Assembly (NCBI GenBank): GCA_965554365.1
Contig: CBEVZO010000001.1
Location: forward strand, 1 to 25,485
DNA length: 25,485 nt
Direction: 5' to 3'
DNA from: an uncultured Anaerolineae bacterium
GTDB taxonomy: Bacteria > Chloroflexota > Anaerolineae > Aggregatilineales > Aggregatilineaceae
Made by a program: the position numbers and the translations under genes. The notes below the pieces were generated by a model that saw only the letters and a program-made list of their open reading frames with translations, made no database searches and was not told the origin of the DNA. This document shows, one piece after another, positions 2,235-20,636 of the stretch. The first letter of the stretch is position 1. The number at the start of each line of letters is the position of its first letter.

Positions 2235-2263
2235 TAAGACGCTGGGTTCTGTTGAAAAGTTCC
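2235..2263 (-). promoter_or_regulatory. ECF sigma-type promoter for the VIT-VWA gene
   Basis: Minus strand reads GGAACTT-TTCAACAGAACCCAGC-GTCTTA (GGAACTT-N16-GTCTNA), close to the RpoE-type consensus, ~57 nt upstream of the ATG. The same motif and spacing recur at 6260. Confidence 0.7.
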
Positions 2264-2338
2264 ATTTGTGGGTTCAGCGGCGTGCCTTTTCAGATGGATT
2301 GGGGCATACTTGTAGGCGTAGTGTAGGAGATCGAAACT

Positions 2339-3334
2339 GTGCATCGCTATTTGATTGACTGGTTACAGTGCCCCGCGTGTCATGCGTCGCTGACGTGGAC
2401 GCTGAGCGAAACTATTGATGATTGTATCGAAACTGCCGAGGCACGTTGTATCGGCTGCGCTGCGGTGTATCCCGTGCGCGAGGGCATCGGTGTTTTTCTG
2501 ACGCCCGATCTGCCACGTAACGATCTGTGGGAACACGTAGACAGTGGATTGATGCGCCATTTACGCGAGAATCCAGATGTCGAACGCGCGTTGATGGATG
2601 GACCGACGGAAACGTTGAGTCCCACCGACCGGTTTTTTCGTATGATGGTACTGGAAGAACGTGGGCAGTTCGAGGCGGCACGGGCGCTCAAAGACTGGAC
2701 GCTGCCTGCGCTGTACACCAAAGCGTACAACCTGGGATGGCAGCAGCAAACGGAGTATGTCATCGACCAACTGCGTAAAACCAGCGTGCCGGTGGTTGAT
2801 CTGGCCTCTGGGCGCGGCTATCTGGTGGAGCAGGTGGCGCGACAGTTGCCCAACTATGTTGTGGCGACAGATTTCAGCCCACGCGTGTTGCGCCGCAACC
2901 AGGCGTTGTGGCGGCATTTCGGGTTGTGTGACCGTGTGAGCCAGATCGCGTTTGATGCGCGCCGTACCCCATTCAAGAACGGGGCTGTCAGTGTGATGAC
3001 AAGCAATCTCGGTTTGCCGAACATTGAACAACCCGGCAATCTGGTGCGCGAACTGCGGCGCGTGGTCGCCGAGCGATTGTTGTCGGTGATGCACTTTTTC
3101 CCTGAAGATGACGCTACCCATGCAGGTCCGATCCGTGAGCATGGTTTGGACACTATGTTATATGCGCGGCGGGCGTTGGCGGCGTTTGGATCTGCGGGGT
3201 GGCAGGTGGTGTTGGAAAATGCGTTTACAGGTCCGGCCAGCCCCACGCCGCACGGCGATATTATCCCTTCTGGCGTAGATGGGCTGCCGGTAGCAGATAC
3301 AATGTTGACCTGGGCTGTGCTGGTGGCACATTGA
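2339..3334 (+). CDS. Trm112-like Zn-ribbon fused class I SAM-dependent methyltransferase
   Basis: GTG start with TAGGAG RBS. N-terminal LQCPAC...CIGCAAVYPVREGI resembles Trm112. SAM motif I VVDLASGRGY, followed by VVATDFS, FDARRTPF and post-II SNLGL. Confidence 0.82.
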   Translation: MHRYLIDWLQCPACHASLTWTLSETIDDCIETAEARCIGCAAVYPVREGIGVFLTPDLPRNDLWEHVDSGLMRHLRENPDVERALMDGPTETLSPTDRFFRMMVLEERGQFEAARALKDWTLPALYTKAYNLGWQQQTEYVIDQLRKTSVPVVDLASGRGYLVEQVARQLPNYVVATDFSPRVLRRNQALWRHFGLCDRVSQIAFDARRTPFKNGAVSVMTSNLGLPNIEQPGNLVRELRRVVAERLLSVMHFFPEDDATHAGPIREHGLDTMLYARRALAAFGSAGWQVVLENAFTGPASPTPHGDIIPSGVDGLPVADTMLTWAVLVAH

Positions 3335-3364
3335 CCAGATCATTTGCAATGAAGGACAGTCACG

Positions 3365-4579
3365 ATGCCTGAACATCACACGTTGGTTGAACTGGATGCT
3401 GCGCGGTTGATGGACGACGTGCGGCAGTTAAGCGTTGAGATTGGCCCGCGTCCGGCGACAAGCCCCGCAGAGCATGAAGCAGCCGATTATCTGCACGCTC
3501 AGTTATGCAGCGTGAATCCCCACTGGGAACTGCTTACGCAGACATTTCGCAGCTTGGACGGATTCCGTTACCGTATTGCGCCATTGGCGTTTCTGGCAGG
3601 CTTGAGCTTGCTCGTCGGACTGCGCCGCGACCGTGAAACGCAAATTACTAGCGGGCTGTTTTCAATTGCGTTGAGCATTCTCAGCCGCGATGCGTTTCTT
3701 GCGCGCCCGGCAGTGTGGGAGGAGTGGCTGCCGCGCGGGGCATCACAGAATGTGATCGTGCGCATTCCGCCGCGTCGCCGCATCGACCGCCGGATTGTTT
3801 TTGTGGCGCACATGGATTCAGGTGTGCATCGCCTGACCACCACACCAGGTGTGGCGCGCCACCTACCACGCACGCTGGGCGGCATTACCTTGATGGCGTT
3901 GGTGGGCGGTGTGCTGACGGCGCTGTCGGGACGCAACCAACGCTGGCGCGAAATCCGTGCGTTGATCGCGGCGTCGGCGCTGGCCGGGTCCGGGCTGGCA
4001 ATGGTAGACGAAATGGGGGCCAAAGTTGCCGGGGCGATTGGCAATGCGTCCGGTGTCGCGGCGCTGATGGGATTAGCGCGCACCCTGCACGCTCGTCCCG
4101 CGAACTCCACCGAAGTGATCCTCGCCTTCACGGGCAGCGCGACCGCTGTCTCGACTGGCGCGGATGTGCTGGCGACCGAGTACGGCAAGGCGTGGAAAGA
4201 TGCGCTGTGGGTGGTGGTGAACAACGTGGGGGCGGGTGAATTGTGCTGGGTGACACGGCACGGCATCAGCCCATACGCCTACTACTATCCCGATGACGAA
4301 GCGGTCAATGTGTTGGCACAGGTCGCGCAGACACGGCCTGATCTGGGGATGATGGGCAAGCAGATGTTGACAGTAGACGAGGTGGCGATCTTGCGCGACC
4401 GCGATCTACGGGCGGCGGCGTTGATGGCCTATGACCGTGTGACCGGTTTGCTCCCGCATTGGCGGCAGATCAGCGATACGGTGCATGAAGTGGAACCCGC
4501 CACGCTGGAACGCGCGGCTCATGCGTGTTGGACAGCGGTGCAGTTGGTCGATCAGGCTGATTCCTGGCCGTCTGCTTAG
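3365..4579 (+). CDS. Membrane-embedded M28-family peptidase homologue with degenerate active site (probable pseudoenzyme)
   Basis: [34 protein letters not shown], [12 protein letters not shown], EVILAFTG and SDTV give the M28 layout, with hydrophobic inserts. Most metal ligands are substituted (see findings). Confidence 0.8.
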
Positions 4580-6129
4580 CGACTATCTTCCAATGTGGAT
4601 GACGCTAACGACTGTTTGAGATTCCATAGACGTTCGGTCAGTGAGACATGGTAAATGTGCGGATTGACCAGGCGTTTCACGCCAGGGTCCAGGCGCTCGA
4701 CATCGTGTTCGCGGCGTGCGCGCATCGCTTCCACGTCCGGCAAATCGTACACCAGTTGCCCATCGCGCAGCACTTCGACCAGCAGCGGCTCAATCTCCGA
4801 GATATATTCTCGGTCGATGGTGCGGCTTTTGGTGTGACGGGTATGGTGACGCAGTACAATGGGGTCCGCTGTGCGCGGGTCTTCATCGTCCAGGCTCAGC
4901 AGATCGGCGGTGGCTTTGCCGCGTGCGTCATATACGCGCCACACGCTTTTGTGCCCCGGGTTTGGCGTTTTATCCGTCGAGTCGGAGAGCTTGATCGCCG
5001 GTTTCCACGTTTCTCCCTCACACACCGCGACCAGTTTATATACGCCACCTAGTGCGGGTTCGCCCCAGGATGTGACGAGACGTGTCCCCACCCCAAAGAC
5101 CAGTCGGTTGATCAGATGGTCTGCGTCTACGTCCCAGCGCGGTGCTTCGTCGCGAATCTGCGTGAGAATTTGCCAGATTACCAGTTCGTCCAGATTATTC
5201 GATAACACGATGAGCGTATCGGGGAAGCCCGCTGCATCGAGCATCTTCGCGGCCTGGATACTGAGATATGCCAGGTCGCCGGAGTCTAACCGGATGCCAA
5301 TCGGTTTGTGGCCTTTGCGGCGCAGTTCCTCAAACACGGTGATCGCGTGGGGCACGCCGCTGCCGAGCGTGTTGATCGTATCTACCAGCAACAAACAATC
5401 GTCGGGATAGACGTCGGCGTAGGCGCGGAAGGCGCTGAGTTCGCCCATGCCCAACGCCATGAACACCTGTACCATGCTGTGCGCGTGCGTGCCTTTGGGC
5501 GGATAACCGAGCAGGCGCGAAATCCCCACGTTAGACGTGAAATCTGCCCCGCCGATCAACGCGGCCCGTGTTCCGGCGTTTGCGCCTCTCCCTTGCCCGC
5601 GTCGCAGCCCGAACTCTATGATCAGTCGTCCGCGTCCGGCCCGGTGCATTCGTGCGGCTTTGCTCGCGACGAGCGTCTGATAATTCAGATGGTTCAACAG
5701 CGAGGTTTCTAACAACTGCGCCGGGATGATCGGACCCATCACGACGGTCAGCGGTGTGTGGGGATGGACCACGCGCCCTTCAGGGATGGCGTGCAGCGAT
5801 AGCCCCTCAAATGTGCCGTTGGCTGCGAGCCACGCCAGAAAATCGTCGTGGAATACGCGGTTTCCGGTCCCGGAGGTGATGCTACGCAGGTACTCGATAT
5901 CATCCGGCTTAAAGTGCGCGTCTTGCATCCAGTTGAGGAGCCATTCCAGCCCCGCATTGACACAGTACCCCGCTTGGTGCGCGCCATAGTCGGGATAGCC
6001 CCGAAAGAAATGGTCAAACTGGGCTTTGCGTTCGTGCAGCCCCGTGCGGAAATATAGTTGAGCCATCGTCAACTGATACAGGTCGGTGAAGAGGATACCT
6101 TCGGCCATGCGGCGTTCGTTCGGTTTCAC
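4576..6129 (-). CDS. pncB: Nicotinate phosphoribosyltransferase
   Basis: [36 protein letters not shown] and GGVYKLV are NAPRTase motifs. Start re-called to GTG 6129 (GGAG 7 nt upstream); ATG 6135 or 6108 are alternatives. The ORF-track start at 6387 overlaps the divergent gene. Confidence 0.93.
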
Positions 6130-6259
6130 ACGCATACTCCCATCAGTGCAGATGTGCGATGCACGCAGATTATCTCGCAATCTGCACCAGAGCGCACACT
6201 TTGTTTGCGTTCTGCGTGCATCTGAGCGGTAATTAGGGTGCATCAGTTGCATGATCGCC

Positions 6260-6288
6260 GGAACAAACTGCGCTGGATCGGCGTCTAG
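6260..6288 (+). promoter_or_regulatory. ECF sigma-type promoter for the alpha-2-macroglobulin gene
   Basis: GGAAC-AAACTGCGCTGGATCG-GCGTCT-AG, identical core and 16-nt spacer to the VIT-VWA promoter; 55 nt upstream of the GTG start. Confidence 0.7.
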
Positions 6289-6343
6289 AGTGCGACACCC
6301 TTTGTTTTCATGTCGCGAGAAAAATATGCACAGGAGAGGAACC

Positions 6344-9300
6344 GTGAGTCGATACCGTATCGTTTTGCAACGCAGTACACTGCTCATCGTAGCGGCGCTG
6401 CTATTAATTTTGGTGGGGCAGTCGTTTGCCCAGGAGGACCGCGATCCGCTGCCGCCGCACGTACTCGCCGTGATGCCATATCCGGGCGAGGAAGTGCTGA
6501 CGGATCAGCCGGTCACGGTGATGTTTGATCAGCCCATGCACCGGGCCAGTGTCGAGGCGGCGTGGTCGCTGGACCCTGCCGCGACGGGCACGTTTGCCTG
6601 GACCGATGACCGCACCTTGACGTTTCTGCCGGATGGCGGTTGGCAGCGCGCGACGCGCTATGATGTCACGTTAGGCATAGCGGCGCAGGCCGCCAACGAT
6701 TTGCCGTTTGAAGACACCTATACGTTTTACGTGCAGACGATTGGCTATCTCGAAGTCTCGGCGGTGATCCCCGCGCCGGATGCCGAAGGTGTGCAGGCCG
6801 ACGCAACAATCATTGTGTCGTTTAATCGCCCGGTGGTTCCGCTGGTGTCTACGGCGCAGCTTGACGATCTCCCCGATCCGCTGATTTTCGATCCGGCGGT
6901 GGAGGGGCATGGCGAATGGCTCAACACGTCAATCTACCAGTTTATGCCCAAAAAACCGTTGGCGGGCGGCACGACGTTCAATGTGACGGTGGATGCAGGG
7001 CTGACGGATGTGCTGGGCGCGACGTTGGACGAAGCGTATAGCTGGAACTTCAAAACACTGCCGCCCGAAATCCTCAATGTCTCACCGTACAACGGGCAGC
7101 AGAACGTGCGCCTGGAAAATGTGGTCAGCGTGCAGTTCAGCCAGCCGATGGATCGCCCCAGCAGCGCGGAAGCGTTTATTCTGACGCACAACGGCGAACG
7201 TGTGCCTGGGGTGTTTGAATGGGCTGACGATGACCGCAGTTTTGTCTACCGCCCGGACGCGAATTTCGAGATCGAGTCGGTCTACACGCTCAACATCGCT
7301 ACCTCTGCGCGCAATGCGTCCGGTGAATCCACGCTGGAGGAGGGACTGTCGTATGTCTTCATGACCGTGCCCTATCCCGGCATCGCCGATACCGAGCCGG
7401 ACAACAACGAGCGTGATGTGTATCCGGGTGACGGCGTGTGGATTTATTTCAAGTCGCCCATGAATACTGAGACGTTCGAGGGTAAGGCGGAGATCATCCA
7501 GCCTGAGGGCGTGGCATGGGAGCCAGTCGTTTATGGCGACAGCCTGTACATGCAGTTCGCCACGCAGCAGAACACGGAATACGTGATCCGCTTCAAACGC
7601 GGCGCAGAAGACGTGTATGGCAACGCGATTGAAACGGACTACACGTTCAGTTTCCGCACCGGGGAGATTGATGCCTGGGCGTCGCTGCCGTTTGGGGATC
7701 GCTTCATGATCACCAGCGCCTACCGCGATGATACGCGCATCGCTATGAGTGTCGCCGCGCAGCCTATTGTGAGCTTTGGGTTGTACGATGTCGTCGTCGA
7801 TGACTACGCTATCGCGATGCAGGGCTATTACTACTACGATGAAGACTATCCGCTCAAGAATCCTGCGCGACTTGTGCGTGCCTGGACCGAGCAGCTTGAT
7901 GCCAGCCCAGCCTTGCAGGGTGTGGACGAAATCCTGCTGGCGGCGCAGGGGGGCGGCAGGCTGCCGTTGGGCGTGTATTATCTGGAAGTGCAGCAGCAAG
8001 AGACAGATCGTTATGCGCAGCGGATGCACCTCGCGGTGGTAACGGCTAATCTGACCGTGAAACGCACCCCGAACGAAATGCTTGTGTGGGTAACGGATAT
8101 TGCGTCCGGTGCGCCGCTGGCGAATGTGCCGGTCAGTTTGTACACCCACGAGGGAACGCTATTGGGCGTCAACGGAACCGATGCGGACGGCTTGATGCGT
8201 TTGCCGGTGGATCTCTCGCCTACCGACAACGAATTCGCTTATGCAGTGGCACAGAGCGACGATGTGTTTGGTGTGTGGATGTCGTGGAATGAAGCTGACT
8301 TGCCCGATCAGTCTGGTTATCTGTACACTGACCGCCCGATCTATCGCCCGGCTGAGACAGTCTACTTCCGGGGCGCGCTGCGTGTCAAGGATGACACCAC
8401 GTACACCGTGCCGGACGTGAACACGGTGCATGTACGCATCGACGTGAACTGGGGCGGACAGTTGTTGTGGGAAGGTGATTTGCCGCTGACTGAGTTCGGG
8501 ACATTTGATGGCGAGATCGAATTGCCGGAGGATGCGCAGCTTGGTGAGGCGCAAATCTACGCCGAAGCCGGCGGGCGCTACTACGCGCACAGCTACTTCA
8601 CGATCTCTGAGTTCCGCGTGCCAGAGTACAAGGTAGAGGTGACGCCGGACTACGACGAGATTGTGCAGGGTGATCCGGCGCGGGCCGCGATCACCGCGTC
8701 GTATTACTTCGGCGGGCCGGTGAGCAACGCGGACCTGAATTGGAATGCGTATGGCGATGTGGCCTATTTCAACTATGCCGGGCCGGGGCGCTACAACTTC
8801 ACCGATAATACGCAGGACTACTTTAGTTGGTACTACGTGGGCGGCGAGAGCGCAATCACCGACGCGAATGGTACGGTGATCGCGGCGCTGGAAAACACCA
8901 ACGCGCCGTCGATCCGCCCGATGACGATCAGCCTGGAAGGGGAAACTTACGACGAAAGCGGCCAGTATATCAGCGGACGCACGACCATCCTCGCGCACCC
9001 GGCGAATGTGTATGTGGGGCTGCGCACCGACCGCTACTTCGGGCGCGAAGGGTCACCGGTCAACCTCGATCTGATCGTTGTCACGCCGGAAAGTGATCCG
9101 TTGGCAGATCAGAAGATCGAACTCACGGTCATCGAAATCCGCTGGGAACGCGTGCCGCTTGAAGGTCAGTTTGGGCGCTACGAGTGGGAACGCCGCGAGA
9201 TCGAAGTTGAGACGAACGAGGTGCGCACCGGGCCGGATGGCACAGCACAGTACAGTTTCACGCCGCCGCAAGCGGGCATCTACCGCGTGCGCGCCGTGAG

Positions 9301-12256
9301 CCGCGATCAACGTGAGCGCGTGAACAGCAGCACACTGCGTTTGTGGGTTACGGGCGAAACCTCTGTGTGGTGGGGCCGACCGAGCAACACCATCGACCTG
9401 ATCACTGACAAAGACTCCTATGTTCCCGGTGACACTGCCGAAATCCTGATCCCGACGCCGTTCACGGGCACGTCATACGCATTGGTGGCGGTGGAGCGCG
9501 CGGGCATTCAGCAGGTGAACGTGTTCGAGATCACCGGCTCGACGCTGGTCTACAAACTTCCGATCACGGACTTCCATGCGCCAACGGTGCATATTTCGGT
9601 GACGCTGGTCAAGGGCACGGACGCGGAAGAACTCAATCCCTCGTATCGCACGGGAAGCGTGGCGCTGAGTGTAGAGCCGGTGCAGCAGCGCATGGACGTG
9701 ACGATTACGCCTTCCGCGATGCTGGCGCAGCCCGGTGATACAGTCACGCTGGATGTGCGGACAGTGGACGCGCGCGGCGAACCGGTGAGTGCCGAAGTGG
9801 GTGTGACGGTGACGGATCAGGCGATTCTCTCGCTGATGCCACCGAATAGCATTCCACTGGAAGCTCACTTTTACGGGGGCGAAGGCAACTACGTCTATAC
9901 CGACGTGGCGATGTCCGCGCTGTTGGACGTGATGACGGACGAAATCTTGAAAAACGCCAAACGTCGGGAACACGACGAAGTCGGAGCCGTTAACGACGCG
10001 GATATGGCGGGTGCATCTGCTCCCGCCGCTGAGTTCGCATTGATGGACGGTGCCGCGATGGAAGAAGGTGAAGCCGCGCCGGGCGGAGCGCCACAGCAAC
10101 AAGTCGCGATCCGTGAAGACTTCCAGCAAACGCCGTTGTGGGCTCCGCGTGTGGTGACGGATGTCAGCGGGCAGGCATCGGTGACGGTGACGCTGCCGGA
10201 TAACCTGACGACGTGGCATGAGGATGCGCGGGGTCTGACAATCGATACACATGTAGGCGATGCCGGGTTAGATGTGGTGAGTACGCTCCCGTTGCTGACA
10301 CGCCCGGTTGTACCGCGCTTCTTTGTCGTGGGCGACCGCGCCGTGCTGGCCTCCGTGATTAACAACAACACCGAGGCAGCGCAGACGGTTGAGGTGCGTC
10401 TCGAAGCGACCGGCGTCGAGTTCAAGAGTGACGAAGTGCAGACCGTAACCATCGAAGCCGGGCAGCGCGCCCGTGTGGAATGGACGGTGGTGGTTGAAGA
10501 CGTGCCGTTTGTGGACATGACCTTCTTCGCCATTGGCGCGGATGGCTACGCTGACGCGGCAAAACCCACGCTCGCCACCGGGCCGGACGGTACGATCCCC
10601 GTGTATCGTTACACTGCGCCGGACACGACGGGCACGGGCGGTCTGCTCCGCGAGGGCGGCGCACGTACCGAAGCGATCAGTCTGCCGCCGAGTCTGGATA
10701 CCGATCAGGGCGAACTGACGATCAAGATCGATCCGTCGCTGGCGGTGACCACAGTGGATGCGCTGGATTACCTGCGGAATTTCAAACATCAGTGTATCGA
10801 GCAGACCGTGAGCCGCTTCCTACCCAATGTGATGACCTATCGCGCGCTGCGCGACCTGGGCCTCGACGATCCGGCGTTGAAAGCGCAGTTGGAAGTCGCG
10901 CTCGACTTTGCGCTCACCAAACTGCGTAACGAGCAGAATGCCGATGGCGGCTGGGGGTGGTTCGGGCACATGGAGAGCAATCCCTATGTCACGGCTTATG
11001 CTGTGCTGGGCTTGATCGAAGCACGCGATGCCGGGTTTGAGGTGGACGCGGGTATGATCGACCGCGCGCTGAACTACGTGCGCACAGATTTTGTGCGCCC
11101 CAACCGCGACACGCCAGTCTACCGGCTCAACCGTCAGGCATTCTACCTGTATGTGCTGGCGCGCGGCGGACAGGCTAGCCAGGGTGATCTGAACGCGTTG
11201 CTGGACCAGCGGCTCGAACTCGACTACTGGGCGCAGGCGTATCTGCTGATGGCGTATCACGAGGCAAGTCCCGGCGATCCGGCAGAGGCGCAGTTGGTGA
11301 GCGATCTGCAAACTGGCGCGATCCTCTCCGCGACTGGCGGGCATTGGGAAGAAGATGATATCGATTGGTGGAACTGGAGCAGCGACACGCGCACGACGGC
11401 CATTGTACTGGCGGCGCTGACACGCGTCCAGCCGGACCATGATCTGCTGCCCAATGTGGTGCGCTGGTTGATGGTGGCGCGACAGGGCGATCACTGGGTC
11501 ACGACACAGGAAACTGCCTGGGCGGTGATGGCGCTGACCGATTGGATGGTCGCCACTGGCGAATTGCGTGGCAATTTCGACTATGCGTTGACGTTCAACG
11601 GTGATGTGCTGACGGAAGGCACAGTCACGCCGGAGACAGTGCGCGAGGGCGAAGTGCTGCGCATCCAGGTGGCCGATCTGCTCCAGGATGAGATCAACCG
11701 TGTGACGTTCATCCGCGATGAGGGCGACGGTGTGCTGTACTATACCGCGCACCTCAAGACGCGGTTGTGGGCGGCTGAAGCGGACCCGATCAGTCGGGGT
11801 GTGACGGTGGCGCGCGAATACTATCTCGCGGATGATCCCGGCACAACGGTCACGGGGGCGCAGGTAGGTGATGTGATCACGGTGCGCGTGACGATGACGC
11901 TGCCGCAGGATATCTACTACTTTGTGCTGGAAGACCCGCTTCCTGCAGGCACAGAGCCGGTCGATACGTCGCTGTTGACGACAGGCCAACAGAACGAGAC
12001 GCCGACGATCCGACCGAGCCGTAATCCGGTCTGGTACTGGGGCTGGTGGCTGTTCGATCACACCGAGATGCGCGACGAGCAGGTAAATCTCTATGCGGAC
12101 TTCCTGCCGCGCGGAACTTATGTCTACACCTATCAGGTGCGGGCGAGCTTCCCCGGTGAATATCAGACGATGCCGAGCCACGCCTACGCCTTTTACTTCC
12201 CAGAGGTCTTTGGGCGCGGCGCAGGGACACTGTTCACTGTTCAGGCGGCTGACTAG
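6344..12256 (+). CDS. Bacterial alpha-2-macroglobulin family protein with four N-terminal Ig-like (Big_5/SbsA-like) repeats
   Basis: GTG 6344 behind AGGAGAGG; Sec signal ending SFA-QE. Four repeats of (V/I)xxxxP...V.F..P(M/V)...Y.F.F.T. MG domains [17 protein letters not shown] and EFRVPEY. Low-complexity bait-like region followed by IREDF. Thioester motif CIEQ at 10793-10804. C-terminal [10 protein letters not shown]...YTYQVRA. Confidence 0.95.
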
Positions 12257-12300
12257 GCCTAATCGCTAGCGGATAGATAGCAACCAACACTTGACAAACT

Positions 12301-12343
12301 ACACCAGATGCAGGCACACTTGTTTGCATCTGGTGTTTGTTTA
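12301..12343 (+). terminator. Probable intrinsic terminator after alpha-2-macroglobulin
   Basis: Perfect 12-bp stem ACACCAGATGCA (12301-12312) / TGCATCTGGTGT (12325-12336) followed by TTGTTT. Confidence 0.7.
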
Positions 12344-12371
12344 CCTTTTTCCGGTGTTTGCCAGATGGCCC

Positions 12372-12401
12372 TTGTAAGTTGGCATAAGATTTATCTATAA
12401 T
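12372..12401 (+). promoter_or_regulatory. Sigma70-type promoter for the response regulator
   Basis: TTGTAA-N18-TATAAT. Confidence 0.6.
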
Positions 12402-12438
12402 AGGGTTAATGTGAAGAGGCTACGTCGTTAGCGTTTAA

Positions 12439-12810
12439 GTGAGCAACAATATGAACATCGTCTACGTTGAAGATGATCCCACCAATATTCTCCTCCTGGA
12501 ACGTGTGACCCACTCTACTGGCGATTACTTGGCGACGTTTACGGACGCAGAGTCGGCATTGGACAGCGCCGAACTGTGGGATGCTGATCTGTTGCTAGTT
12601 GATATTCATTTGCCGGGCGAGTTGAATGGCCTGGACATGACCGATATCTTACGCCGCAACGGGGTCAACGCGCCCGTGATCGTGATCACTGCTTACGATA
12701 CGCCGGAACTTCTCGCGCGTTGCCGTGAGATTGGCGGGGACATGTACCTGGTCAAGCCGGTGAGTGTGCCGGAGTTGGTCGAACTGCTCAACGATTTTCG
12801 CAACGGGTAA
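12439..12810 (+). CDS. Single-domain response regulator (CheY/DivK-like receiver)
   Basis: VYVEDD, LLVDIHLPG (phosphoacceptor Asp), IVITAY and LVKP are all intact; no output domain. Start may be ATG 12451. Confidence 0.93.
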   Translation: MSNNMNIVYVEDDPTNILLLERVTHSTGDYLATFTDAESALDSAELWDADLLLVDIHLPGELNGLDMTDILRRNGVNAPVIVITAYDTPELLARCREIGGDMYLVKPVSVPELVELLNDFRNG

Positions 12811-12830
12811 GTAAGTTCGCGCTGCCGTTG

Positions 12831-12862
12831 ACGCTATCTGGCCGACGGCGAGATGGCGTTTT
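12831..12862 (+). terminator. Hairpin terminator for the response regulator
   Basis: ACGCTATCT (12831-12839) / AGATGGCGT (12851-12859) with one G-U pair, inner GCC/GGC, then TTT. Confidence 0.55.
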
Positions 12863-12907
12863 AACGATCACGCCGTAATACCATAAGCACCAACAACTAT
12901 CAATCAT

Positions 12908-12946
12908 AACGCCCCGGAATAGCAGCTCCGGGGCGTTGTTGTGTTT
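12908..12946. terminator. Second hairpin between convergent genes; probable (bidirectional) terminator for nifJ
   Basis: Perfect 11-bp stem AACGCCCCGGA (12908-12918) / TCCGGGGCGTT (12927-12937), followed by GTTGTGTTTT on the plus strand. Confidence 0.65.
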
Positions 12947-12993
12947 TATGGTGAGGGCGAATGCAGTGATCCGTCCTCAGTGTGTCGTGCGGG

Positions 12994-15900
12994 CTAGATG
13001 TCGAACTGTGCCCACTGTTCGTACATCTTCCACCGGAAGGCCACGTCTTCGCGGGCCGCTGCCAGCAGCATCTCGGCGCGTTCCGGGTCGGAGTTCCGTA
13101 GCATCCGGAAACGGTTCTGTTTGTACATGAACTCCTCAATGTCTATCGTCGGCGTTTTGGAGTCTAGCATGAGGGGCTGTTTGCCCTTTTCCGCGTTGCG
13201 CGGATCGTAGCGGAACAGCGGCCAGAAGCCGGAAGCTACTGCATCCGCCTGGATTTCGTTACCCCGACGCAGGTTGTAACCGTGCGCGATGCAGGGCGAG
13301 TAAGCGATGATCAGGGACGGGCCAGGATACGCTTCGGCCTCAGCAAAGGCTTTGACCGTCTGGTTCATGTTGGACCCAAACGCGATCTGCGCCACGTAGA
13401 TGTTGCCGTAGGTCATCGCGATCATGCCCAGGTCTTTCTTGGGCGATGCTTTACCAGCCGCCGCGAACTTGGCAATCGCGCCACGCGGGGTGGCTTTGGA
13501 CATCTGACCGCCGGTGTTGGAGTATACGCCAGTGTCGAGGACGAGGACGTTCACGTCGCGCCCCGAAGCCAGCACATGATCCAGACCACCGTAGCCGATG
13601 TCGTAGGCCCAACCGTCGCCACCGAAGATCCACACGGACTTCTTGACGAGATAGTCGGCGACAGAATGCAGTTGCGCAGCCGCTGCACTATCGTCAGCTT
13701 CTAGCGCCTGCTTGAGTTGCTCGACGCGCTCGCGCTGGACTTCGATAGATTCCTGGGTACTCATGTCCGCATCGCGGATGCCTTCGAGCAGCGTTACATC
13801 GCCGTCTTTTGTTTCGATCAGTTCATTGACCAGTTCGCGGGCGTAGACTGTCAGCTTATCGACTGTCAGCCGCATACCCAGCCCGAACTCCGCCGCGTCT
13901 TCGAACAGCGAGTTAGACCACGTCGGGCCGCGCCCATCGTCGCGCACGGCGTAGGGAGTGGTCGGCAGATTGCCGCCGTAGATCGACGAGCAGCCGGTGG
14001 CGTTCGCGATGATCATGCGGTCGCCGAACAACTGGGTTGCCAGCTTGACGTATGGTGTCTCACCACAGCCCGCGCACGCGCCGGAGAACTCGAACAGCGG
14101 TTGGAGGAACTGCGAACCCTTAACCGTGAAGCGCTTGAAGGTCGCCGGGTCGGTTTCGGGCAGCTCGACGAAGTAATCCCAGTTGGCGGTTTCCTGCTGA
14201 CGCAGATCGTCGGTCAACTCGACCATCGCCAGGGCCTTGCGCCCGGTTTTCTTATTGTCGGGGCAGACTTCGACACACAGACCGCAGCCAGTGCAGTCCA
14301 TCGGCGAAACCTGTACGGTGTACTGCATGCCCTTCCAATCACGCCCGCGCGCGTCCATCGCCTGGAAGCCCGCTGGGGCGCTGCCGTTACCGTCGTACAC
14401 CTTCATGCGGATTGTGGCATGGGGGCATACAAACGCGCATTGGTTGCACTGGATGCAGGATTCGGTATCCCAGACCGGGATTTCGGTCGCTACGTTGCGC
14501 TTTTCGTACTGCGTGGTGGCGGTGGGGTAAGTGCCGTCCACCGGCAGCATGGACACGGGCAGATCGTCGCCGCGCCCAGCGATGATTTCCGCCGTTACGT
14601 CCTGCACGAACGCCGGTGCGTGGGCCGGGACAGTCTCGCGCATCGTCAGTGTACTGGTGGTTTCCTGTGGATACTCCACCTTCTCGATGCGCCCGACGGC
14701 AATCTCAGCCGCCTTGACGTTCATATCAACGATGCTCTGACCCTTAGTGCCGTAGGTATCTTCAACGGCAGCTTCGATCATTGCCATCGCTTTTTCTTCC
14801 GGCAGCACACCGGAGATGTTGAAGAACGCGGCCTGCATGATGATGTTGATACGGCCACCCAGGCCCACCGACTTGGCAATCTTGTTGCCGTCGATGACGT
14901 AGAACTGCGCCTGCATGTCGATGATTTGCTGCTGGACTTCCTGCGGGATGTGATCCCACACTTCGTCTGCGCTGTGGGGGCTGTTGAGCAGGAAGATGCC
15001 ACCTTGCTCCAGACCATCCAGCATGTTGTAGCGTTCGAGGAAGCCGAAGTTGTGGCAGGCCACGAACTGCGCGTTGCTGATCAGGTAGGTGCTGCGGATC
15101 GGCTGTTTGCTGAAACGCAGATGCGAGATCGTGCGTGCGCCGGATTTCTTGGAGTCGTAGACGAAGAAGCCCTGCGCGTAGTTGTCGGTTGCTTTACCGA
15201 TGATCTTGATGGAGTTCTTGTTCGCGCCCACTGTACCGTCTGCGCCCAGACCCCAGAACATCGCGCGGTGGACGCCTGGGCCTTCGATGTCGAACGCCGG
15301 GTCATAGTCCAGGCTGGTGTGGGTCAGGTCGTCGTTGATGCCAACGGTGAAGTGGTTTTTCGGCTGTGCCGCAGCGATGTTGTCATACACGGCCTTGACC
15401 ATCGCCGGGGTGAATTCTTTGGAGCTAAGGCCGTAACGCCCGCCAACAATAACCGGCATGGCGTTCACGTTGCCCTGCGTCATCGCTTCGACATACGCGG
15501 TCAGCACGTCCTGGTACAGCGGTTCGCCCGCGCCACCCGGTTCTTTGGTGCGGTCGAGTACGGCAATCGTCTTCACCGTATCAGGGATCGCCGCTACCAA
15601 TGCCTGCGCGTCGAACGGACGGTAGAGGCGGACCTTGATCAGACCAACCTTCTCGCCCTGCTCAATAAGGTAATCAACGGTTTCGTGCGCTGCTTCCGCG
15701 CCCGAGCTCATCATCACGATTACGCGCTCAGCATCCGGCGCGCCAAAGTAGTCAAACAGGTGGTACTGGCGGCCCACGATTTTCGCGAAGCGATCCATCA
15801 CGTTCTGGACGACACCGGGCGTGACATCGTAGTACGGGTTCACCGATTCACGCCCCTGGAAGAACACGTCGGGGTTCTGGGCCGTACCGCGCAGGACCGG

Positions 15901-16539
15901 GCGATCCGGCGACATGCCGCGCTGACGATGCTCGATGACGTATTTGTCGTCGATTACGGCGCGCATGTCGTCTTTGGTCAGTTGTTCGATTTTCTGGATT
16001 TCGTGCGAACTGCGGAAGCCGTCGAAGAAGTGCAGGAACGGCACACGCGTTTCGAGCGTCGCCGCCTGGGCGATCAGTGCAAAGTCGTGGACTTCCTGAA
16101 TGCTGCCCGATGCCAACTGCGCCCAACCAGTCGAGCGCGCCGCCATCACATCCGAGTGATCGCCGAAAATCGACAGCGCCTGCGTCGCCAACGAACGGGC
16201 CGAAATATGGAATACGGTCGGGGTCAGTTCGCCTGCGATCTTGTACATATTGGGGAGCATCAGCAGCAGCCCTTGCGAGGCCGTGAAAGTTGTTGTCAGC
16301 GCGCCGGTGGTTAGTGCCCCATGCACCGCGCCCGCTGCGCCGCCTTCGGCCTGCATTTCAGTCACATCCGGGATTGTCCCCCAGAGGTTGGTTTCCCCGG
16401 CTACCGACATTTCATCGGCGGTTTCGCCCATCGAAGACGAGGGCGTAATGGGGTAAATCGCGATGACTTCATTGAGCGCATGCGCTACCTGGGCGGCAGC
16501 GGTATTGCCGTCAATGGTCACCATTTTACGATCAGCCAT
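12994..16539 (-). CDS. nifJ: Pyruvate:ferredoxin (flavodoxin) oxidoreductase, single-subunit type
   Basis: IYPITPSS, TTFTASQGLLLM, GGRYGLSSKEF, two 4Fe-4S motifs (CIQCNQCAFVCP, CTGCGLCVEVCP), FSGACAGCGETPY and TPP motif GGDGWAYDIG; AGGAGG RBS. Confidence 0.97.
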   Translation of the reverse strand: MADRKMVTIDGNTAAAQVAHALNEVIAIYPITPSSSMGETADEMSVAGETNLWGTIPDVTEMQAEGGAAGAVHGALTTGALTTTFTASQGLLLMLPNMYKIAGELTPTVFHISARSLATQALSIFGDHSDVMAARSTGWAQLASGSIQEVHDFALIAQAATLETRVPFLHFFDGFRSSHEIQKIEQLTKDDMRAVIDDKYVIEHRQRGMSPDRPVLRGTAQNPDVFFQGRESVNPYYDVTPGVVQNVMDRFAKIVGRQYHLFDYFGAPDAERVIVMMSSGAEAAHETVDYLIEQGEKVGLIKVRLYRPFDAQALVAAIPDTVKTIAVLDRTKEPGGAGEPLYQDVLTAYVEAMTQGNVNAMPVIVGGRYGLSSKEFTPAMVKAVYDNIAAAQPKNHFTVGINDDLTHTSLDYDPAFDIEGPGVHRAMFWGLGADGTVGANKNSIKIIGKATDNYAQGFFVYDSKKSGARTISHLRFSKQPIRSTYLISNAQFVACHNFGFLERYNMLDGLEQGGIFLLNSPHSADEVWDHIPQEVQQQIIDMQAQFYVIDGNKIAKSVGLGGRINIIMQAAFFNISGVLPEEKAMAMIEAAVEDTYGTKGQSIVDMNVKAAEIAVGRIEKVEYPQETTSTLTMRETVPAHAPAFVQDVTAEIIAGRGDDLPVSMLPVDGTYPTATTQYEKRNVATEIPVWDTESCIQCNQCAFVCPHATIRMKVYDGNGSAPAGFQAMDARGRDWKGMQYTVQVSPMDCTGCGLCVEVCPDNKKTGRKALAMVELTDDLRQQETANWDYFVELPETDPATFKRFTVKGSQFLQPLFEFSGACAGCGETPYVKLATQLFGDRMIIANATGCSSIYGGNLPTTPYAVRDDGRGPTWSNSLFEDAAEFGLGMRLTVDKLTVYARELVNELIETKDGDVTLLEGIRDADMSTQESIEVQRERVEQLKQALEADDSAAAAQLHSVADYLVKKSVWIFGGDGWAYDIGYGGLDHVLASGRDVNVLVLDTGVYSNTGGQMSKATPRGAIAKFAAAGKASPKKDLGMIAMTYGNIYVAQIAFGSNMNQTVKAFAEAEAYPGPSLIIAYSPCIAHGYNLRRGNEIQADAVASGFWPLFRYDPRNAEKGKQPLMLDSKTPTIDIEEFMYKQNRFRMLRNSDPERAEMLLAAAREDVAFRWKMYEQWAQFDI

Positions 16540-16796
16540 AAAAATTCCTCCTGTATGTCCGTTCCATAGTTAACCGCACGCTGTCTAAGTGGACGAGAGC
16601 CTGCGGTCAGCTTCACGAGCTAGTTAGAGGGCAGAATGCGGGATGAGAATTGTCGAGTTGTGTTGTGTGAAGGTATCGCACACGTTTCCGCCATTTTTTC
16701 GTCACGAGTGTAATGCTTAGCGCGTGCCCTCAGTAGTGTGAAATGTCGTGATAAATCGGATGAGTGTCACTTTCGGTCGTTTGTGAGGTCGTTTGT

Positions 16797-16826
16797 GCGA
16801 CACAATCGTCTACGGGGCGGTATAAT
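16797..16826 (+). promoter_or_regulatory. Probable sigma70 promoter for the HAD-sortase-DUF-holA run
   Basis: Perfect TATAAT at 16821-16826; weak -35 GCGACA 18 nt upstream. Confidence 0.45.
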
Positions 16827-16859
16827 CGCGGTGGATTGTGGATACCAAAGGACGGCGTA

Positions 16860-17576
16860 ATGGCAGATAATCGGGTGCTGGCCCTGTTTGATATTGATGG
16901 CACGCTGCTACACTCTGGCGGTTGTGGGCGTGCGGCGACACAGTTGGCGTTGGCGGATGTGTTTGGCACGACGGGCGCGTTGGATGAGGTGAATTTCGCG
17001 GGTAAAACGGATTGGCAGATTCTACGCGAAGTCTTGGAACCTGTGGGATTCAGCGCCGACATGATCGAGGCGCGGCTGGCGCAGCACAACGAGACAGTGG
17101 CGCGGCGCATGATCGAAATCATCGACGATTTTCCGGTACGGCCTTGCGTGGGTGCGCCCGAAGTCGTCGCGGCGCTCAAGGCTGATCCGCGTGTAGTATT
17201 GGGGCTGGTGACCGGCAATACAGCGGCGCTGGTCCCGATTAAACTGCGCGCGGCGGGCTTCGATCCCGCAGACTTCAAGATCGGCGCGTTTGGGTCTGAG
17301 GGCTGGACACGTGCGATGCTGCCGCCGTTGGCATTGGAGCGCGCGCGAGCTTACACCAATGGTGATTTTGCGCCGGCGCGCATTGTGATCATTGGCGACA
17401 CGCCCGGTGACATCACCTGTGCCGCGAGCGTCCAGGGGCGCACGATTGCTGTCGCCACCGGGCCGTTCAGGGTGGACGAACTGCGTCAGTACCAGCCGGA
17501 TCACGTTTTCGAGACAATGCAAGATCATGCGCGCGTGATCGCGGCAGTGCTGCACAACGGACGTGCTACTGCCTGA
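16860..17576 (+). CDS. HAD-superfamily hydrolase (phosphoglycolate phosphatase-like)
   Basis: Motif I LFDIDGTLL, motif II LVTGN, motif III K in IKL, motif IV IIGDTPGD. Start re-called to ATG 16860. Confidence 0.9.
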   Translation: MADNRVLALFDIDGTLLHSGGCGRAATQLALADVFGTTGALDEVNFAGKTDWQILREVLEPVGFSADMIEARLAQHNETVARRMIEIIDDFPVRPCVGAPEVVAALKADPRVVLGLVTGNTAALVPIKLRAAGFDPADFKIGAFGSEGWTRAMLPPLALERARAYTNGDFAPARIVIIGDTPGDITCAASVQGRTIAVATGPFRVDELRQYQPDHVFETMQDHARVIAAVLHNGRATA

Positions 17577-17586
17577 TAGGATACCT

Positions 17587-18585
17587 ATGTCTGCCACTGC
17601 CCCGGACCGGCGTACACTCGTTTTCGGCATCTTGATCGCCGGAGTGGGGTTGTTATGTCTGGGGAGCGGCATCGCGCTGCTGGTGTGGCGATTAGCGCGT
17701 CCAGAGGAGGCAGTGTTGCTGCCGCCGGGATTTGTCACGCCCACGATAGCCACTGCGACACCCGGCGTGTTGGGGACGCCGCTGCCGCCGCCGCTCCTGC
17801 CGGATGATCCCGCGCAGATCGTCATGTTGCCGGTGAGCGAGCGGCCTTCGCTTACGCCGACACAGCCGCTGCCGCCCGAAATCCCCACTGTAACCGCGTC
17901 ACATACGCTAACCGCGACTGCTACGCTGACGCGAACACCGCGTGCAACTGCCACGTCTGTTGTGTCTCGCGATCAGACATTCACACCAACGCCCAGCGTC
18001 CCGACTATAATTGCGACCAGCACCGCTATGCCGACGCTGACGGTGACGCTGGGCCCGACAGCCACTTATGCGCCGTCGCTCACGCCGGTTTCCATGCAAC
18101 TCGCCGCCATCCCGGATCGTATTCTGATTGATCGCATTGCTCTGGATGCGCCAGTGCTGCCAGTGGGACAGCACACGCTGGCGGTCGATGAGCAGGTCTT
18201 TAGCCAGTGGAATGTGCCGGAGCAGCGCGCGGCGGGTTGGCATCACAACAGTGCGCCGCTGGATCAGCCGGGCAACCTTGTGCTGAACGGGCACCACAAC
18301 GTGTATGGTGAGGTGTTCCGCTATATCAATGTGTTGGAGCCGGGCGATTGGCTGATGCTGGAAGCGGATGGGCGGCGCTATTATTACGTGGTGGTGCAGA
18401 CAATGACGCTCGCGGAGCAGGATCAACTGGTTGAGGTGCGGCAAGAGAACGCGCGCTGGATATTGCCGACGGATGATGAACGTGTTACGCTCATTACGTG
18501 CTGGCCGTACTACGCTAATACGCACCGGGTTGTCGTGATCGCGCGTCCCATTGACGCTGTTATCCCGCCCGGTGATATACCCTGA
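17587..18585 (+). CDS. Sortase with N-terminal membrane anchor and long Thr/Pro-rich linker
   Basis: TM segment LVFGILIAGVGLLCLGSGIALLVW; T/P-rich linker; catalytic His in GNLVLNGHH, TLITC (Cys 18499-18501) and Arg in THRVVVIA. Confidence 0.9.
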   Translation: MSATAPDRRTLVFGILIAGVGLLCLGSGIALLVWRLARPEEAVLLPPGFVTPTIATATPGVLGTPLPPPLLPDDPAQIVMLPVSERPSLTPTQPLPPEIPTVTASHTLTATATLTRTPRATATSVVSRDQTFTPTPSVPTIIATSTAMPTLTVTLGPTATYAPSLTPVSMQLAAIPDRILIDRIALDAPVLPVGQHTLAVDEQVFSQWNVPEQRAAGWHHNSAPLDQPGNLVLNGHHNVYGEVFRYINVLEPGDWLMLEADGRRYYYVVVQTMTLAEQDQLVEVRQENARWILPTDDERVTLITCWPYYANTHRVVVIARPIDAVIPPGDIP

Positions 18586-18603
18586 CACGGTGGAGAGTTT
18601 CTA

Positions 18604-19158
18604 ATGGTTCAATTTCTTGCAATTTTCGTAGCGCCGCTGCTGAATTTGCCGCTCATCCGGCGCATTCGCCGCAATCATGGCTTTGAACACGCGACGATCC
18701 ACGTCCTGAGTCGCAAGGTGAAAAACCTAAGCATGGCGGGGCGCGCCACCAACACCGGTTTTTTCCTGTATGGCAATGTGCCCACTGAGGAAATCGAAGC
18801 GGCGGTATTGGAAGCGTTGCAGCGCATGAAGAACGGCGAACACCGGCTGGCGATCCATCCCAACTGTGGCACGGGTTTGGTGACGGCAGGCTTTATGACT
18901 AGCATCACGACAATGCTCGTCACAGCGGGGATGCGCAACACCGTCTCGGACCGGCTCTCGCGGTTGCCCAGCGTGATCTTGCTCTCCACACTTTCGCTGA
19001 TTCTCGCGCAGCCGTTGGGATTGGCGCTGCAAGAGTATTTCACCACGCTCGGCGAGATGGGCGATATGGAGATCGTGAGCATCAATCGCTCGGAGTTCTC
19101 GGTTCCGCTGGCGGGCCAACGCCTGACCGTACATTTTGTCCGCACGCGTTCGAACTAA
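18604..19158 (+). CDS. Conserved membrane-associated hypothetical protein (DUF6391-like)
   Basis: RRNHGFEHATIHVL and LAIHPNCGT match my recollection of DUF6391 proteins; two C-terminal hydrophobic segments. Family assignment is from memory, not searched. Confidence 0.7.
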   Translation: MVQFLAIFVAPLLNLPLIRRIRRNHGFEHATIHVLSRKVKNLSMAGRATNTGFFLYGNVPTEEIEAAVLEALQRMKNGEHRLAIHPNCGTGLVTAGFMTSITTMLVTAGMRNTVSDRLSRLPSVILLSTLSLILAQPLGLALQEYFTTLGEMGDMEIVSINRSEFSVPLAGQRLTVHFVRTRSN

Positions 19159-19170
19159 CACACGCCAACT

Positions 19171-20166
19171 ATGACTACTAAAGCTGCCGCCCCCACATTT
19201 TACGTGCTGCACGGCGAGGATGAATTCAGCCGCCGCGCGGCAGTGCAGACGATGCGCGATCAGATGGGCGATCCGACCACTGCCGATTTGAACACCGCAG
19301 TCTTCGATGGCAAAAACGCCTCCGTGAGTGATGTCTTGGCGGCGGCCCGTGCGATGCCATTCCTGAGCGATAAGCGGCTCGTGATCGTCGAGGGAATGCT
19401 GAATTGGCTGTCGCGTAAGGGGGCGGGCAAAAGCGGCAAAGCGGAGCTTGAGACGCTGCGCGATGGCTTGAGCGCGCTGCCGGACTCGGCACGCGTTGTG
19501 TTTGTGGAGCATGGGAAACTTTCCGCGCGCAACATTATCCTGAAGGCCGCTAAAGAGATTCGCGGCGGTTATCACAAGGAATTCAATCCCCCACACAACC
19601 CGCAGCAGTGGATCATGAACCGGGCACGCGACGAATATGAGGCTGAGATTGATCGGCAGGGCGCGACGGCGTTGGCGACGTTGGTCGCGGGCAACATGCG
19701 CGCGGCAGACAGCGAACTCGCTAAGCTGGTAGCGTATGTGAACTACGAACGGCCCATCACTGAGGCGGATGTGGCACAGATGACTGCATATGTGGTCGAG
19801 GCCAACGTGTTTGAGATGGTGGACGCGATTGGCCGGCGCGATGGTGCAACGGCGGTCTGGTTGATGCACCGCTTGCTGGACAACAGCGAACCATTGCAAC
19901 TGTTCGGCATGATTGTACGCCAGTTCCGGTTGTTGATTCTGGCGCGCGAACATCTCAACCAGGGCGGCACACCTGCCGACACGGGGCAAGCGATTGGCGC
20001 GCATCCGTTTGTGGGCAAAAAAGTCGCGGAACAGGCGCGCGTGTTTTCGCAGGATCAGCTTGAACGCATTTACCGCTTTTTGCTAGAAACAGACCTCAGT
20101 ATCAAAACCGGTAAAGTCGAGGCGGCCCTCGCGCTCGATCTCCTCATCGCTAGAGTTTCCTCCTAA
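19171..20166 (+). CDS. holA: DNA polymerase III subunit delta
   Basis: FYVLHGED, AMPFLSDKRLVIV, ELAKL, NVFEMVDAI, LFGMIVRQFRLL, HPFVGKK and DLSIKTG are typical HolA segments. Confidence 0.93.
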   Translation: MTTKAAAPTFYVLHGEDEFSRRAAVQTMRDQMGDPTTADLNTAVFDGKNASVSDVLAAARAMPFLSDKRLVIVEGMLNWLSRKGAGKSGKAELETLRDGLSALPDSARVVFVEHGKLSARNIILKAAKEIRGGYHKEFNPPHNPQQWIMNRARDEYEAEIDRQGATALATLVAGNMRAADSELAKLVAYVNYERPITEADVAQMTAYVVEANVFEMVDAIGRRDGATAVWLMHRLLDNSEPLQLFGMIVRQFRLLILAREHLNQGGTPADTGQAIGAHPFVGKKVAEQARVFSQDQLERIYRFLLETDLSIKTGKVEAALALDLLIARVSS

Positions 20167-20190
20167 GAATCACAAAATCCTCATACTGCT

Positions 20191-20212
20191 CCCCCCCCCT
20201 ATTTTTAGGGGG
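20191..20212 (+). terminator. Short hairpin after holA including a C9 tract
   Basis: CCCCCTA-TTTT-TAGGGGG stem-loop followed by TT; weak U-tail. Confidence 0.4.
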
Positions 20213-20236
20213 TTCGTCTATTTTGACCACATGGGC

Positions 20237-20263
20237 GTAACTTTGCCCCTGCGTTTTGCGTAT
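20237..20263 (+). promoter_or_regulatory. ECF sigma-type promoter candidate for the GlsB/YeaQ/YmgE-STAS pair
   Basis: GTAAC-TTTGCCCCTGCGTTTT-GCGTAT; same 16-nt spacing as the sites at 2235-2263 and 6260-6288, with one mismatch in each box. Confidence 0.5.
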
Positions 20264-20316
20264 AGATTTACAGCAGCACGGATTGAGGGATGCACAACAC
20301 AAAGAAAGAGCATGTC

Positions 20317-20586: not shown

Positions 20587-20636
20587 CTCTGTATACGCTG
20601 CCATCGTAGGACGTAAGATAGAAGTTTAGAGGGAAC

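Follow-up and report, generated by a model that had tools for sequence, protein, structure and literature searches.

Two predicted ECF-type promoter classes in an Anaerolineae genome, one linking alpha-2-macroglobulin, serpin and VIT-VWA genes to a candidate sigma/anti-sigma pair

We analysed a stretch of 25,485 nucleotides (nt) from an uncultured Anaerolineae bacterium (contig CBEVZO010000001.1, positions 1 to 25,485), called the window below, in which three intergenic sites resemble promoters of extracytoplasmic function (ECF) sigma factors. The sites precede a gene for a VIT-VWA protein, a gene for alpha-2-macroglobulin (A2M) and a small operon encoding a GlsB-type membrane protein and a STAS protein. 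It is likely, in our judgement, that promoters of two separate ECF regulons lie in the window: class 1, read by an ECF sigma factor encoded on contig C399 and subject to feedback from a promoter embedded in the sigma gene, and class 2, read by another sigma factor. A first-pass annotation of the window had proposed one sigma factor for all three sites. This is supported for the VIT-VWA and A2M sites, which share a regulon, but not for the GlsB/STAS site, which differs in its -10 box (CGTA), is separated from the other two by weight matrices and resembles the self-promoter of a different sigma gene. The features of the window are as follows.

1..2178, minus strand: VIT-VWA gene with an N-terminal signal-peptide-like sequence, its 3' end beyond the window (Pfam VIT 4.7e-28, VWA domains)
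2237..2263, minus strand: predicted class-1 ECF-type promoter of the VIT-VWA gene, GGAAC(TTTT), 16-nt gap, GCGTCT (pattern match and orthologues)
6260..6286, plus strand: predicted class-1 ECF-type promoter of the A2M gene, GGAAC, 16-nt gap, GCGTCT (pattern match and orthologues)
6344..12256, plus strand: alpha-2-macroglobulin gene, 1970 amino acids (aa), signal peptide (Pfam bMG3/5/6/10, A2M_BRD, A2M, TED_complement)
20237..20263, plus strand: predicted class-2 ECF-type promoter of the GlsB-STAS operon, GTAAC, 16-nt gap, GCGTAT(AG) (pattern match and orthologues)
20317..20586, plus strand: GlsB/YeaQ/YmgE-type small membrane protein, first gene of the class-2 operon here (PF04226 Transgly_assoc)
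20637..21026, plus strand: single-domain STAS protein of a putative anti-anti-sigma (SpoIIAA/RsbV) type, the conserved gene of the class-2 operon (Pfam STAS 6e-18)

Searching both strands of the window with G[GT]AAC-N16-GCGT[CA]T returned exactly three matches, at 2263->2237 (minus strand), 6260-6286 (plus) and 20237-20263 (plus). Dinucleotide shuffles of the window gave an expectation of 0.06 matches, and at least three matches occurred in 0 of 100 shuffles; the expected figure overstates the case because the pattern was fixed after these sites had been seen. All three sites are intergenic and sense-oriented to their genes. The VIT-VWA and A2M sites are identical at 11/11 specified bases and have unrelated spacers. 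The end of the -10 box lies 58 nt before the start codon of the VIT-VWA gene (ATG, 2178), 57 nt before that of the A2M gene (GTG, 6344, with the ribosome-binding site GGAGAGG) and 53 nt before the most plausible ATG of the GlsB gene (20317). The A2M protein has a bait region, TED and MG10 domains and a thioester motif (CIEQ) at residue 1484, which identifies it as a bacterial alpha-2-macroglobulin. The GlsB protein scores 25.0 bits against PF04226, slightly below the cut-off of 25.3. Positions and strands of the sites, the likeness of the first two at 11 positions over unrelated spacers, a distance of about 55 nt to the starts and the gene identities had all been put forward in the first-pass annotation, and the exact matches, the site sequences, the measured distances and Pfam bear them out.

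The source genome (4.83 Mb in 1056 contigs, 58.6% G+C, 89.7% complete) has 4569 genes according to a simple codon-usage caller (87% coding), which reproduced the genes of the window. The strict pattern matches the whole genome 14 times versus about 10 expected from base composition by hand calculation, which is no enrichment; this count is uninformative because of chance matches in coding sequence. Sense matches were counted in 3021 upstream regions for spacers of k = 10 to 23. GGAAC-Nk-GCGTCT gave five matches at k=16 and 0 to 1 at every other k, and GGAAC-Nk-CGTC gave 12 at k=17 and 0 to 4 elsewhere. Genome-wide, GGAAC-N16-GCGTCT has six matches, five of them in promoter position. Enrichment is restricted to upstream regions and to a single spacing.

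Conservation was followed in an order-level set of 40 relatives from the same family and order and in a class-level set of 80 genomes sampled evenly across Anaerolineae. The class-1 motif can be written GGAAC[C/T]TTT...CGTC[T/C/A]T, with the AAC and CGT cores 17 nt apart (GGAAC-N17-CGTC[T/C/A]T). GGAAC[C/T]TTT...GCGTC[T/A]T is found upstream of 28/29 VIT-VWA orthologues in the order-level set, and GGAAC-N17-CGTC at 27/27 class-wide orthologues with usable upstream DNA, at protein identities of 44-55%. The A2M gene carries GGAAC-N17-CGTC[T/C]T 60-100 nt upstream at 28/30 loci (27/29 without the window's own), and the motif precedes 11 of 12 assessable serpin orthologues. The chance of a GGAAC-N17-CGTC match within 350 nt is about 0.002 by hand calculation. 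Across these sites the spacers are unrelated, and a pyrimidine-purine step 7-8 nt past the -10 box is conserved in A2M and VIT-VWA orthologue sites. From this step, start sites are predicted near 2229 for VIT-VWA and near 6294 for A2M. The sites thus combine an AAC core, a CGT core and a fixed gap with a sharp peak at a single spacing, and they lie in sense orientation upstream of genes and recur at orthologues. AAC and CGT cores about 16-17 nt apart are the typical architecture of ECF promoters. We regard both the class-1 and the class-2 sites as conserved ECF-type promoters, whose activity, start sites and sigma dependence are predicted from sequence. The ECF-type reading offered at the first pass, together with the expected conservation upstream of orthologues, is thereby upheld; the enrichment sought by a genome scan is absent from the plain count and present in upstream regions at the correct spacing. 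The VIT-VWA gene is, on these comparisons, a core and class-wide member of the predicted class-1 regulon.

A class-1 weight matrix, trained on A2M and VIT-VWA sites of other genomes only, was scanned over the source genome. The 11 highest-scoring sites are all in promoter position, and from rank 12 onward the matches are mostly intragenic. The VIT-VWA site has the best score in the genome (33.1 bits), and the A2M site ranks eleventh (17.6 bits). The other nine sites precede the candidate anti-sigma gene described below (the site lies just ahead of it), a truncated open reading frame (ORF) on contig C125, a YfbK-like VWA protein that is a lipoprotein, a Ser/Thr kinase, a serpin whose actual start is a GTG 39 nt past the motif, a 270-aa membrane protein without Pfam match, and DUF4139, DUF7408 and SIMPL/DUF541 proteins. 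Membership in the class-1 regulon is assigned by site position. Most of the products have signal peptides or membrane anchors. The idea of a protease-defence function, raised in the first-pass annotation, gains strength from the presence of this promoter at the genes of a serpin and of additional secreted VWA proteins. Two more serpin genes stand in tandem on contig C395 (G000:C395:1425-3729, L199/L200), and the class-1 motif was not found within 500 nt upstream of the first of them. Serpins are patchy, being present in 14/41 related genomes.

The source genome has 17 matches to sigma-70 region 2, about 12 of them of ECF size. The sole sigma gene at a class-1 site is that of the ECF sigma factor on contig C399 (L025:1908-2507), and no further sigma gene near a class-1 match was found in the source genome or in five relatives. 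In these five better-assembled relatives, the sigma genes at a GGAAC-N17-CGTCYT match are C399 orthologues only; the scan was too strict, missing CGTCA and CGTCTG variants. The location of C399 on another contig supports the earlier proposal that the sigma factor is encoded outside the window. The C399 protein is an ECF sigma factor by its domain scores (Sigma70_r2 73.4 bits; TIGR02937, sigma70-ECF, 116.4 bits, where the cut-off is 42.9). It misses all NCBIfam equivalog cut-offs, its similarity to SigM and SigW being sub-threshold, and therefore it cannot be named SigM, SigW or RpoE. Class-wide, 47/48 genomes with VIT-VWA have a C399-type sigma gene, and 7/8 genomes without the sigma gene also lack VIT-VWA (Fisher p=0.006, in genomes that are not phylogenetically independent).

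The class-1 motif at this locus lies inside the 3' end of the C399 sigma gene, 86 nt before the candidate anti-sigma gene. In the source genome the motif stops 12 nt short of the stop codon's end (L025:2495 vs 2507), and across 80 class-wide loci this distance is 5-65 nt, mostly 11-23 nt. Embedded GGAAC-N17-CGTC is present in 27/30 orthologues of the order and 71/80 of the class, spanning Aggregatilineales, Ardenticatenales, Promineifilaceae, Anaerolineales, Caldilineales and Thermoflexales. This region encodes ..xELLPxxYRL.., a tail that is conserved as protein. We compared codon usage in the motif among 80 C399 orthologues, with the same genes as background. The Glu codon is GAA in 80/80 (background 53%), the next Leu codon is CTT in 70/80 (8%) and the Arg codon is CGT in 80/80 (15%). 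The codon preceding Glu encodes 10 different amino acids and ends in G in 80/80 (31%). In the spacer, all synonymous codons of Pro and Tyr are in use (background not applicable). Protein constraint is insufficient to account for this pattern because the preceding codon encodes 10 amino acids and yet always ends in G, and because GAA and CGT are exclusive. The codon comparison shows that the embedded motif is under selection at synonymous sites, that is, at the DNA level. The motif shares the extended features GGAAC[T/C]TTT and CGTCT[T/A] with the VIT-VWA promoter. By its sequence it qualifies as an internal anti-sigma promoter of the rseA P3 type, and its status as a promoter is predicted. By analogy, the embedded copy may give sigma-dependent synthesis of the anti-sigma factor.

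Within 300 nt upstream of the C399-type sigma gene, the class-1 motif was found at 0/74 loci. No self-promoter was found in this upstream region, whose conserved block reads TTGACG-N17-TATACT, a promoter of sigma-70 type that serves a divergent tRNA gene. An opposite-strand tRNA gene lies just upstream of the C399-type sigma gene in most relatives (L025:1700-1860, G000:C399; L125-L153). Its well-conserved TTGACG-N17-TATACT can help to define the consensus of housekeeping promoters in the lineage. Elsewhere in the source genome, GGAAC-N18-CGTCTT lies 80 nt upstream of a 415-aa primary-like sigma-70 gene (G000:C358:3351-4598, L004); its spacer exceeds that of class 1 by one base.

The candidate anti-sigma gene (L025:2581-4137) adjoins the C399 sigma gene downstream, and an anti-sigma-like ORF occupies this position at 66/78 loci. 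The protein has a transmembrane helix at about residues 88-112, then an acidic low-complexity stretch of about 370 aa and then a C-terminal transmembrane helix. The low-complexity segment is rich in Ala, Thr, Asp, Glu and Pro. Orthologues of the anti-sigma protein range in length from 259 to 484 aa. A model of the complex between the C399 sigma factor and residues 1-85 of the candidate anti-sigma factor scored 0.82, against 0.00 for the best control, with contacts to sigma-2 and sigma-4. Among solved complexes 51/78 attain this mark, and among mismatched pairs 2/108 do; a pass may reflect likeness to solved complexes. This model supports the predicted sigma/anti-sigma binding. A zinc-ribbon-like ORF overlaps the stop codon of the gene. 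From the positions of the motif and the co-occurrence of the sigma gene with VIT-VWA, we infer that the C399 sigma factor is likely to read the class-1 promoters.

The third site of the window belongs elsewhere. The class-2 motif, G[T/C/G]AAC-N16-(T)GCGTATAG, occurs upstream of about 17/20 STAS orthologues, whether or not a GlsB gene intervenes; its distance to the STAS gene is about 400 nt in the former case and 60-160 nt in the latter. The -10 box reads CGTAT(AG) in about 17/20 of these sites and CGTC in 0-1 of 20. At A2M and VIT orthologues, CGTC is followed by T, C or A in 56/56 sites, a set that was selected with a CGTC pattern; scans that permitted CGT[CA] upstream of A2M and VIT-VWA orthologues found no CGTA site. 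Weight matrices separate the sites of the window in the same way. The GlsB/STAS site scores -1.1 bits with the class-1 matrix and 30.4 bits with the class-2 matrix, whereas the A2M site, at the class-1 score given above, has a class-2 score of 12.1 bits and the VIT-VWA site one of 7.3 bits. In the source genome, the class-2 pattern has 10 sense matches at N16 and 0 to 4 at other spacings. The top seven matches of the class-2 matrix in this genome are all in promoter position and mostly read GCAAC-N16-GCGTAT. Judged by sequence comparison, the GlsB/STAS site is a separate promoter class and belongs to a second ECF regulon, distinct from that of VIT-VWA and A2M. We infer that class 2 drives GlsB-STAS and about 10 other genes.

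The reader of class 2 is probably another ECF sigma factor. The best candidate is the self-regulated sigma factor on contig C70 (L007/L281, G000:C70:1510-2109; L282-L310), which has GCAAC-N15/16-(G)CGTATA upstream in 30/30 orthologues of the order. The alternative is the sigma factor on contig C810, whose promoter is one of the top seven class-2 matches; its -35 box, GTGA[A/T]C, is a poorer fit to class 2 than the GCAAC of C70. The C810 sigma gene (L028/L154, G000:C810; L155-L175; G021:C23) has a conserved GTGA[A/T]C-N16-GCGTAT followed by TATAGGGCA. A C810-type sigma gene is the divergent neighbour of the A2M gene in G021 and lies about 2.5 kb past the end of A2M in G015.

Some observations weigh against the assignment of two regulons to these sigma factors. 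Conservation of the class-1 motif is partial at two predicted members, with 4/6 orthologues of the YfbK-like protein and 7/16 of the DUF4139 protein carrying it. The sequencing runs found to hold part of the region are three DNA runs from marine sediment, and no RNA runs were found. The N-terminus of the candidate anti-sigma factor matches Pfam weakly (zf-HC2 E=0.0025, RseA_N E=0.01, both under the cut-offs). On the class-2 side, the spacer of the C70 self-promoter is one base shorter than that of the class-2 targets, and C810 orthologues have GTGA[A/T]C-N16-GCGTAT and so a -35 box of GTGA[A/T]C. ECF paralogues often read similar boxes, and the anti-sigma promoter could serve a different sigma factor. 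Another sigma gene may be unassembled because the genome is only about 90% complete. Finally, GTAAC-N16-CGTCTTA lies 45 nt ahead of the ECF sigma gene of contig C557.

The last three points open an alternative in which class 1 is a real ECF regulon, the embedded motif reflects cross-regulation of the candidate anti-sigma gene by a sigma factor other than C399, and the class-1 sigma factor is that of C557, the chief rival candidate, or of a gene missing from the assembly. The box ahead of the C557 gene and the incompleteness of the genome favour it. However, the spacer of C557 is one base below class 1, and the conserved class-1 sites are all N17. In the better-assembled relatives, C399 orthologues alone stand at a class-1 match. 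Moreover, the embedded motif and the VIT-VWA promoter have extended features in common, and VIT-VWA is nearly confined to genomes with a C399-type sigma gene. We consider this alternative unlikely. Quite unlikely is the proposal that a single ECF sigma factor serves all three sites of the window, CGTC and CGTA being strength variants of one promoter. The same 17-nt spacing from AAC to CGT, the same overall architecture and the GGAAC -35 box of some STAS orthologues speak for it, and some ECF promoters of Bacillus subtilis are served by more than one sigma factor. Nevertheless, the -10 difference is evolutionarily fixed (56/56 sites, CGTC-selected, versus about 17/20 STAS sites), the matrices assign the third site to one class and the first two, at 17.6 to 33.1 versus 7.3 to 12.1 bits, to the other, and the separate C70 sigma gene carries a class-2-type self-promoter in all 30 orthologues. 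That the motif is not a promoter but an operator bound by a regulatory protein or an RNA-level element, with protein or mRNA constraint behind its intragenic conservation, has the protein-level conservation of the ELLPxxYRL tail in its favour and is very improbable, given that the motif is asymmetric, strictly sense, placed 35-160 nt before start codons and built from AAC and CGT cores with a 17-nt gap, that the codon bias in the sigma gene extends over 10 amino acids at the G-ending position and to exclusive GAA and CGT, and that the same boxes stand in non-coding DNA ahead of unrelated genes.

In the two-regulon reading, class 1 would drive the genes for VIT-VWA, A2M, the serpin, the YfbK-like VWA protein, DUF4139, SIMPL, DUF7408, the Ser/Thr kinase and two unknowns. 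An envelope signal would inactivate the anti-sigma factor, and RNA polymerase with the C399 sigma factor would then induce the protease-trap and VWA proteins. The free sigma factor would also transcribe the anti-sigma gene from the embedded promoter, a negative feedback like that of rseA P3 in E. coli. A more far-reaching version, which we hold as rather unlikely, is that the circuit senses proteases directly. The segment of about 370 aa in the anti-sigma factor would lie outside the cell, presumably disordered and tethered between the two transmembrane helices. Its clipping by a foreign protease would act as the site-1 cut, leading to intramembrane proteolysis and release of the sigma factor. 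The released sigma factor would turn on the genes of the thioester A2M trap, the serpin and the VWA proteins; the anti-sigma factor would be re-made from the embedded promoter. Such a circuit would be an inducible anti-protease 'immune' response across Anaerolineae.

Neither ECF regulons nor sigma-dependent promoters within sigma genes are new in kind. The -10 box of E. coli sigma-E is TCNAA, and that of class 1 is CGTC. In E. coli, rseA P3 is a sigma-E-dependent promoter inside rpoE that transcribes the anti-sigma gene rseA (PMC8595263). The C399 locus is like rpoE/rseA in that an ECF sigma factor is co-encoded with a candidate membrane anti-sigma factor and a promoter of its own type lies inside the sigma gene. 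As with sigma-E, the class-1 regulon consists of envelope and exported proteins. Unlike rseA P3, which is more than 230 nt upstream of rseA, the embedded predicted promoter of C399 lies within the last ~10 codons, where it apparently shapes the conserved C-terminal tail. Unlike rpoE, which has an upstream self-promoter, the C399-type sigma gene has no class-1 motif upstream at any of the 74 loci. The content of the predicted regulon also differs from that of sigma-E, as it comprises A2M, serpin and VIT-VWA.

In B. subtilis, the promoters of SigW, SigX and SigM have -35 boxes xGAAAC/TGTAAC/TGCAAC and -10 boxes CGTA/CGAC/CGTC, and one -10 base (CGTA versus CGTC) sorts promoters between paralogous ECF sigma factors. 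The promoters described here resemble them in the AAC and CGT cores at about 16-17 nt, and the single-base split parallels that between class 1 and class 2; phylum, sigma clades and regulons are different. Todor et al. (2020) predicted ECF regulons by phylogenetic footprinting (PMC7776599). Their approach, like the ECF classification (PMC7826278), shares with ours that conserved -35 and -10 boxes at orthologues define a regulon. Both derive the motif from a promoter that precedes the sigma gene (PMC7776599, PMC7826278). A C399-type sigma factor, with no self-promoter found there, would be missed by such pipelines. The main text of the ECF classification makes no mention of Chloroflexi, macroglobulin, serpin or VWA (PMC7826278). 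The A2M protein of the window is like the ECAM/YfhM-type bacterial proteins in being large and exported and in having multiple MG domains, a bait region, a CxEQ thioester and TED. In Proteobacteria, the A2M gene is typically linked to pbpC. Unlike these, the window gene is stand-alone, has a predicted ECF promoter and would be co-regulated with serpin and VWA proteins.

The neighbourhood from A2M to STAS (window 12439-21026) is syntenic in several genera, and includes genes for a lone response regulator, PFOR, a HAD hydrolase, a sortase, DUF6391 and a DNA polymerase III delta subunit. STAS orthologues are often syntenic with the A2M gene, and the distance between the two is about 13 kb in G002, G003, G004, G008, G014, G018 and G022. 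Outside the window, a dispersed intergenic repeat of about 95 nt surfaced as a false match of the class-2 matrix. It has seven copies (G000 C706:718-762, C60:7501, C219:5871, C437:2884, C541:2659, C649:8 and C1019:1064), in each of which a C-rich/G-rich hairpin-like segment comes after a conserved 45-nt core, and could be a miniature inverted-repeat transposable element (MITE)-like element or a small RNA.

A role in protecting the envelope from foreign proteases is assumed for bacterial alpha-2-macroglobulins and serpins. To our knowledge, little has been described of how their genes are switched on, and the literature that we searched held no link between an ECF sigma factor and bacterial A2M or serpin genes. 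Here, one conserved promoter ties A2M, serpin and ITIH-like VIT-VWA genes to one candidate sigma/anti-sigma pair. Look-alike AAC...CGT sites may belong to different ECF regulons that are told apart by one -10 base. The embedded predicted promoter is a clear case of dual coding: it holds synonymous positions constant in 80/80 orthologues, and the C-terminal tail of the sigma factor is apparently set by it. The link extends over a whole class of Chloroflexota whose members are mostly uncultured, and offers a testable regulatory handle on the function of these proteins.

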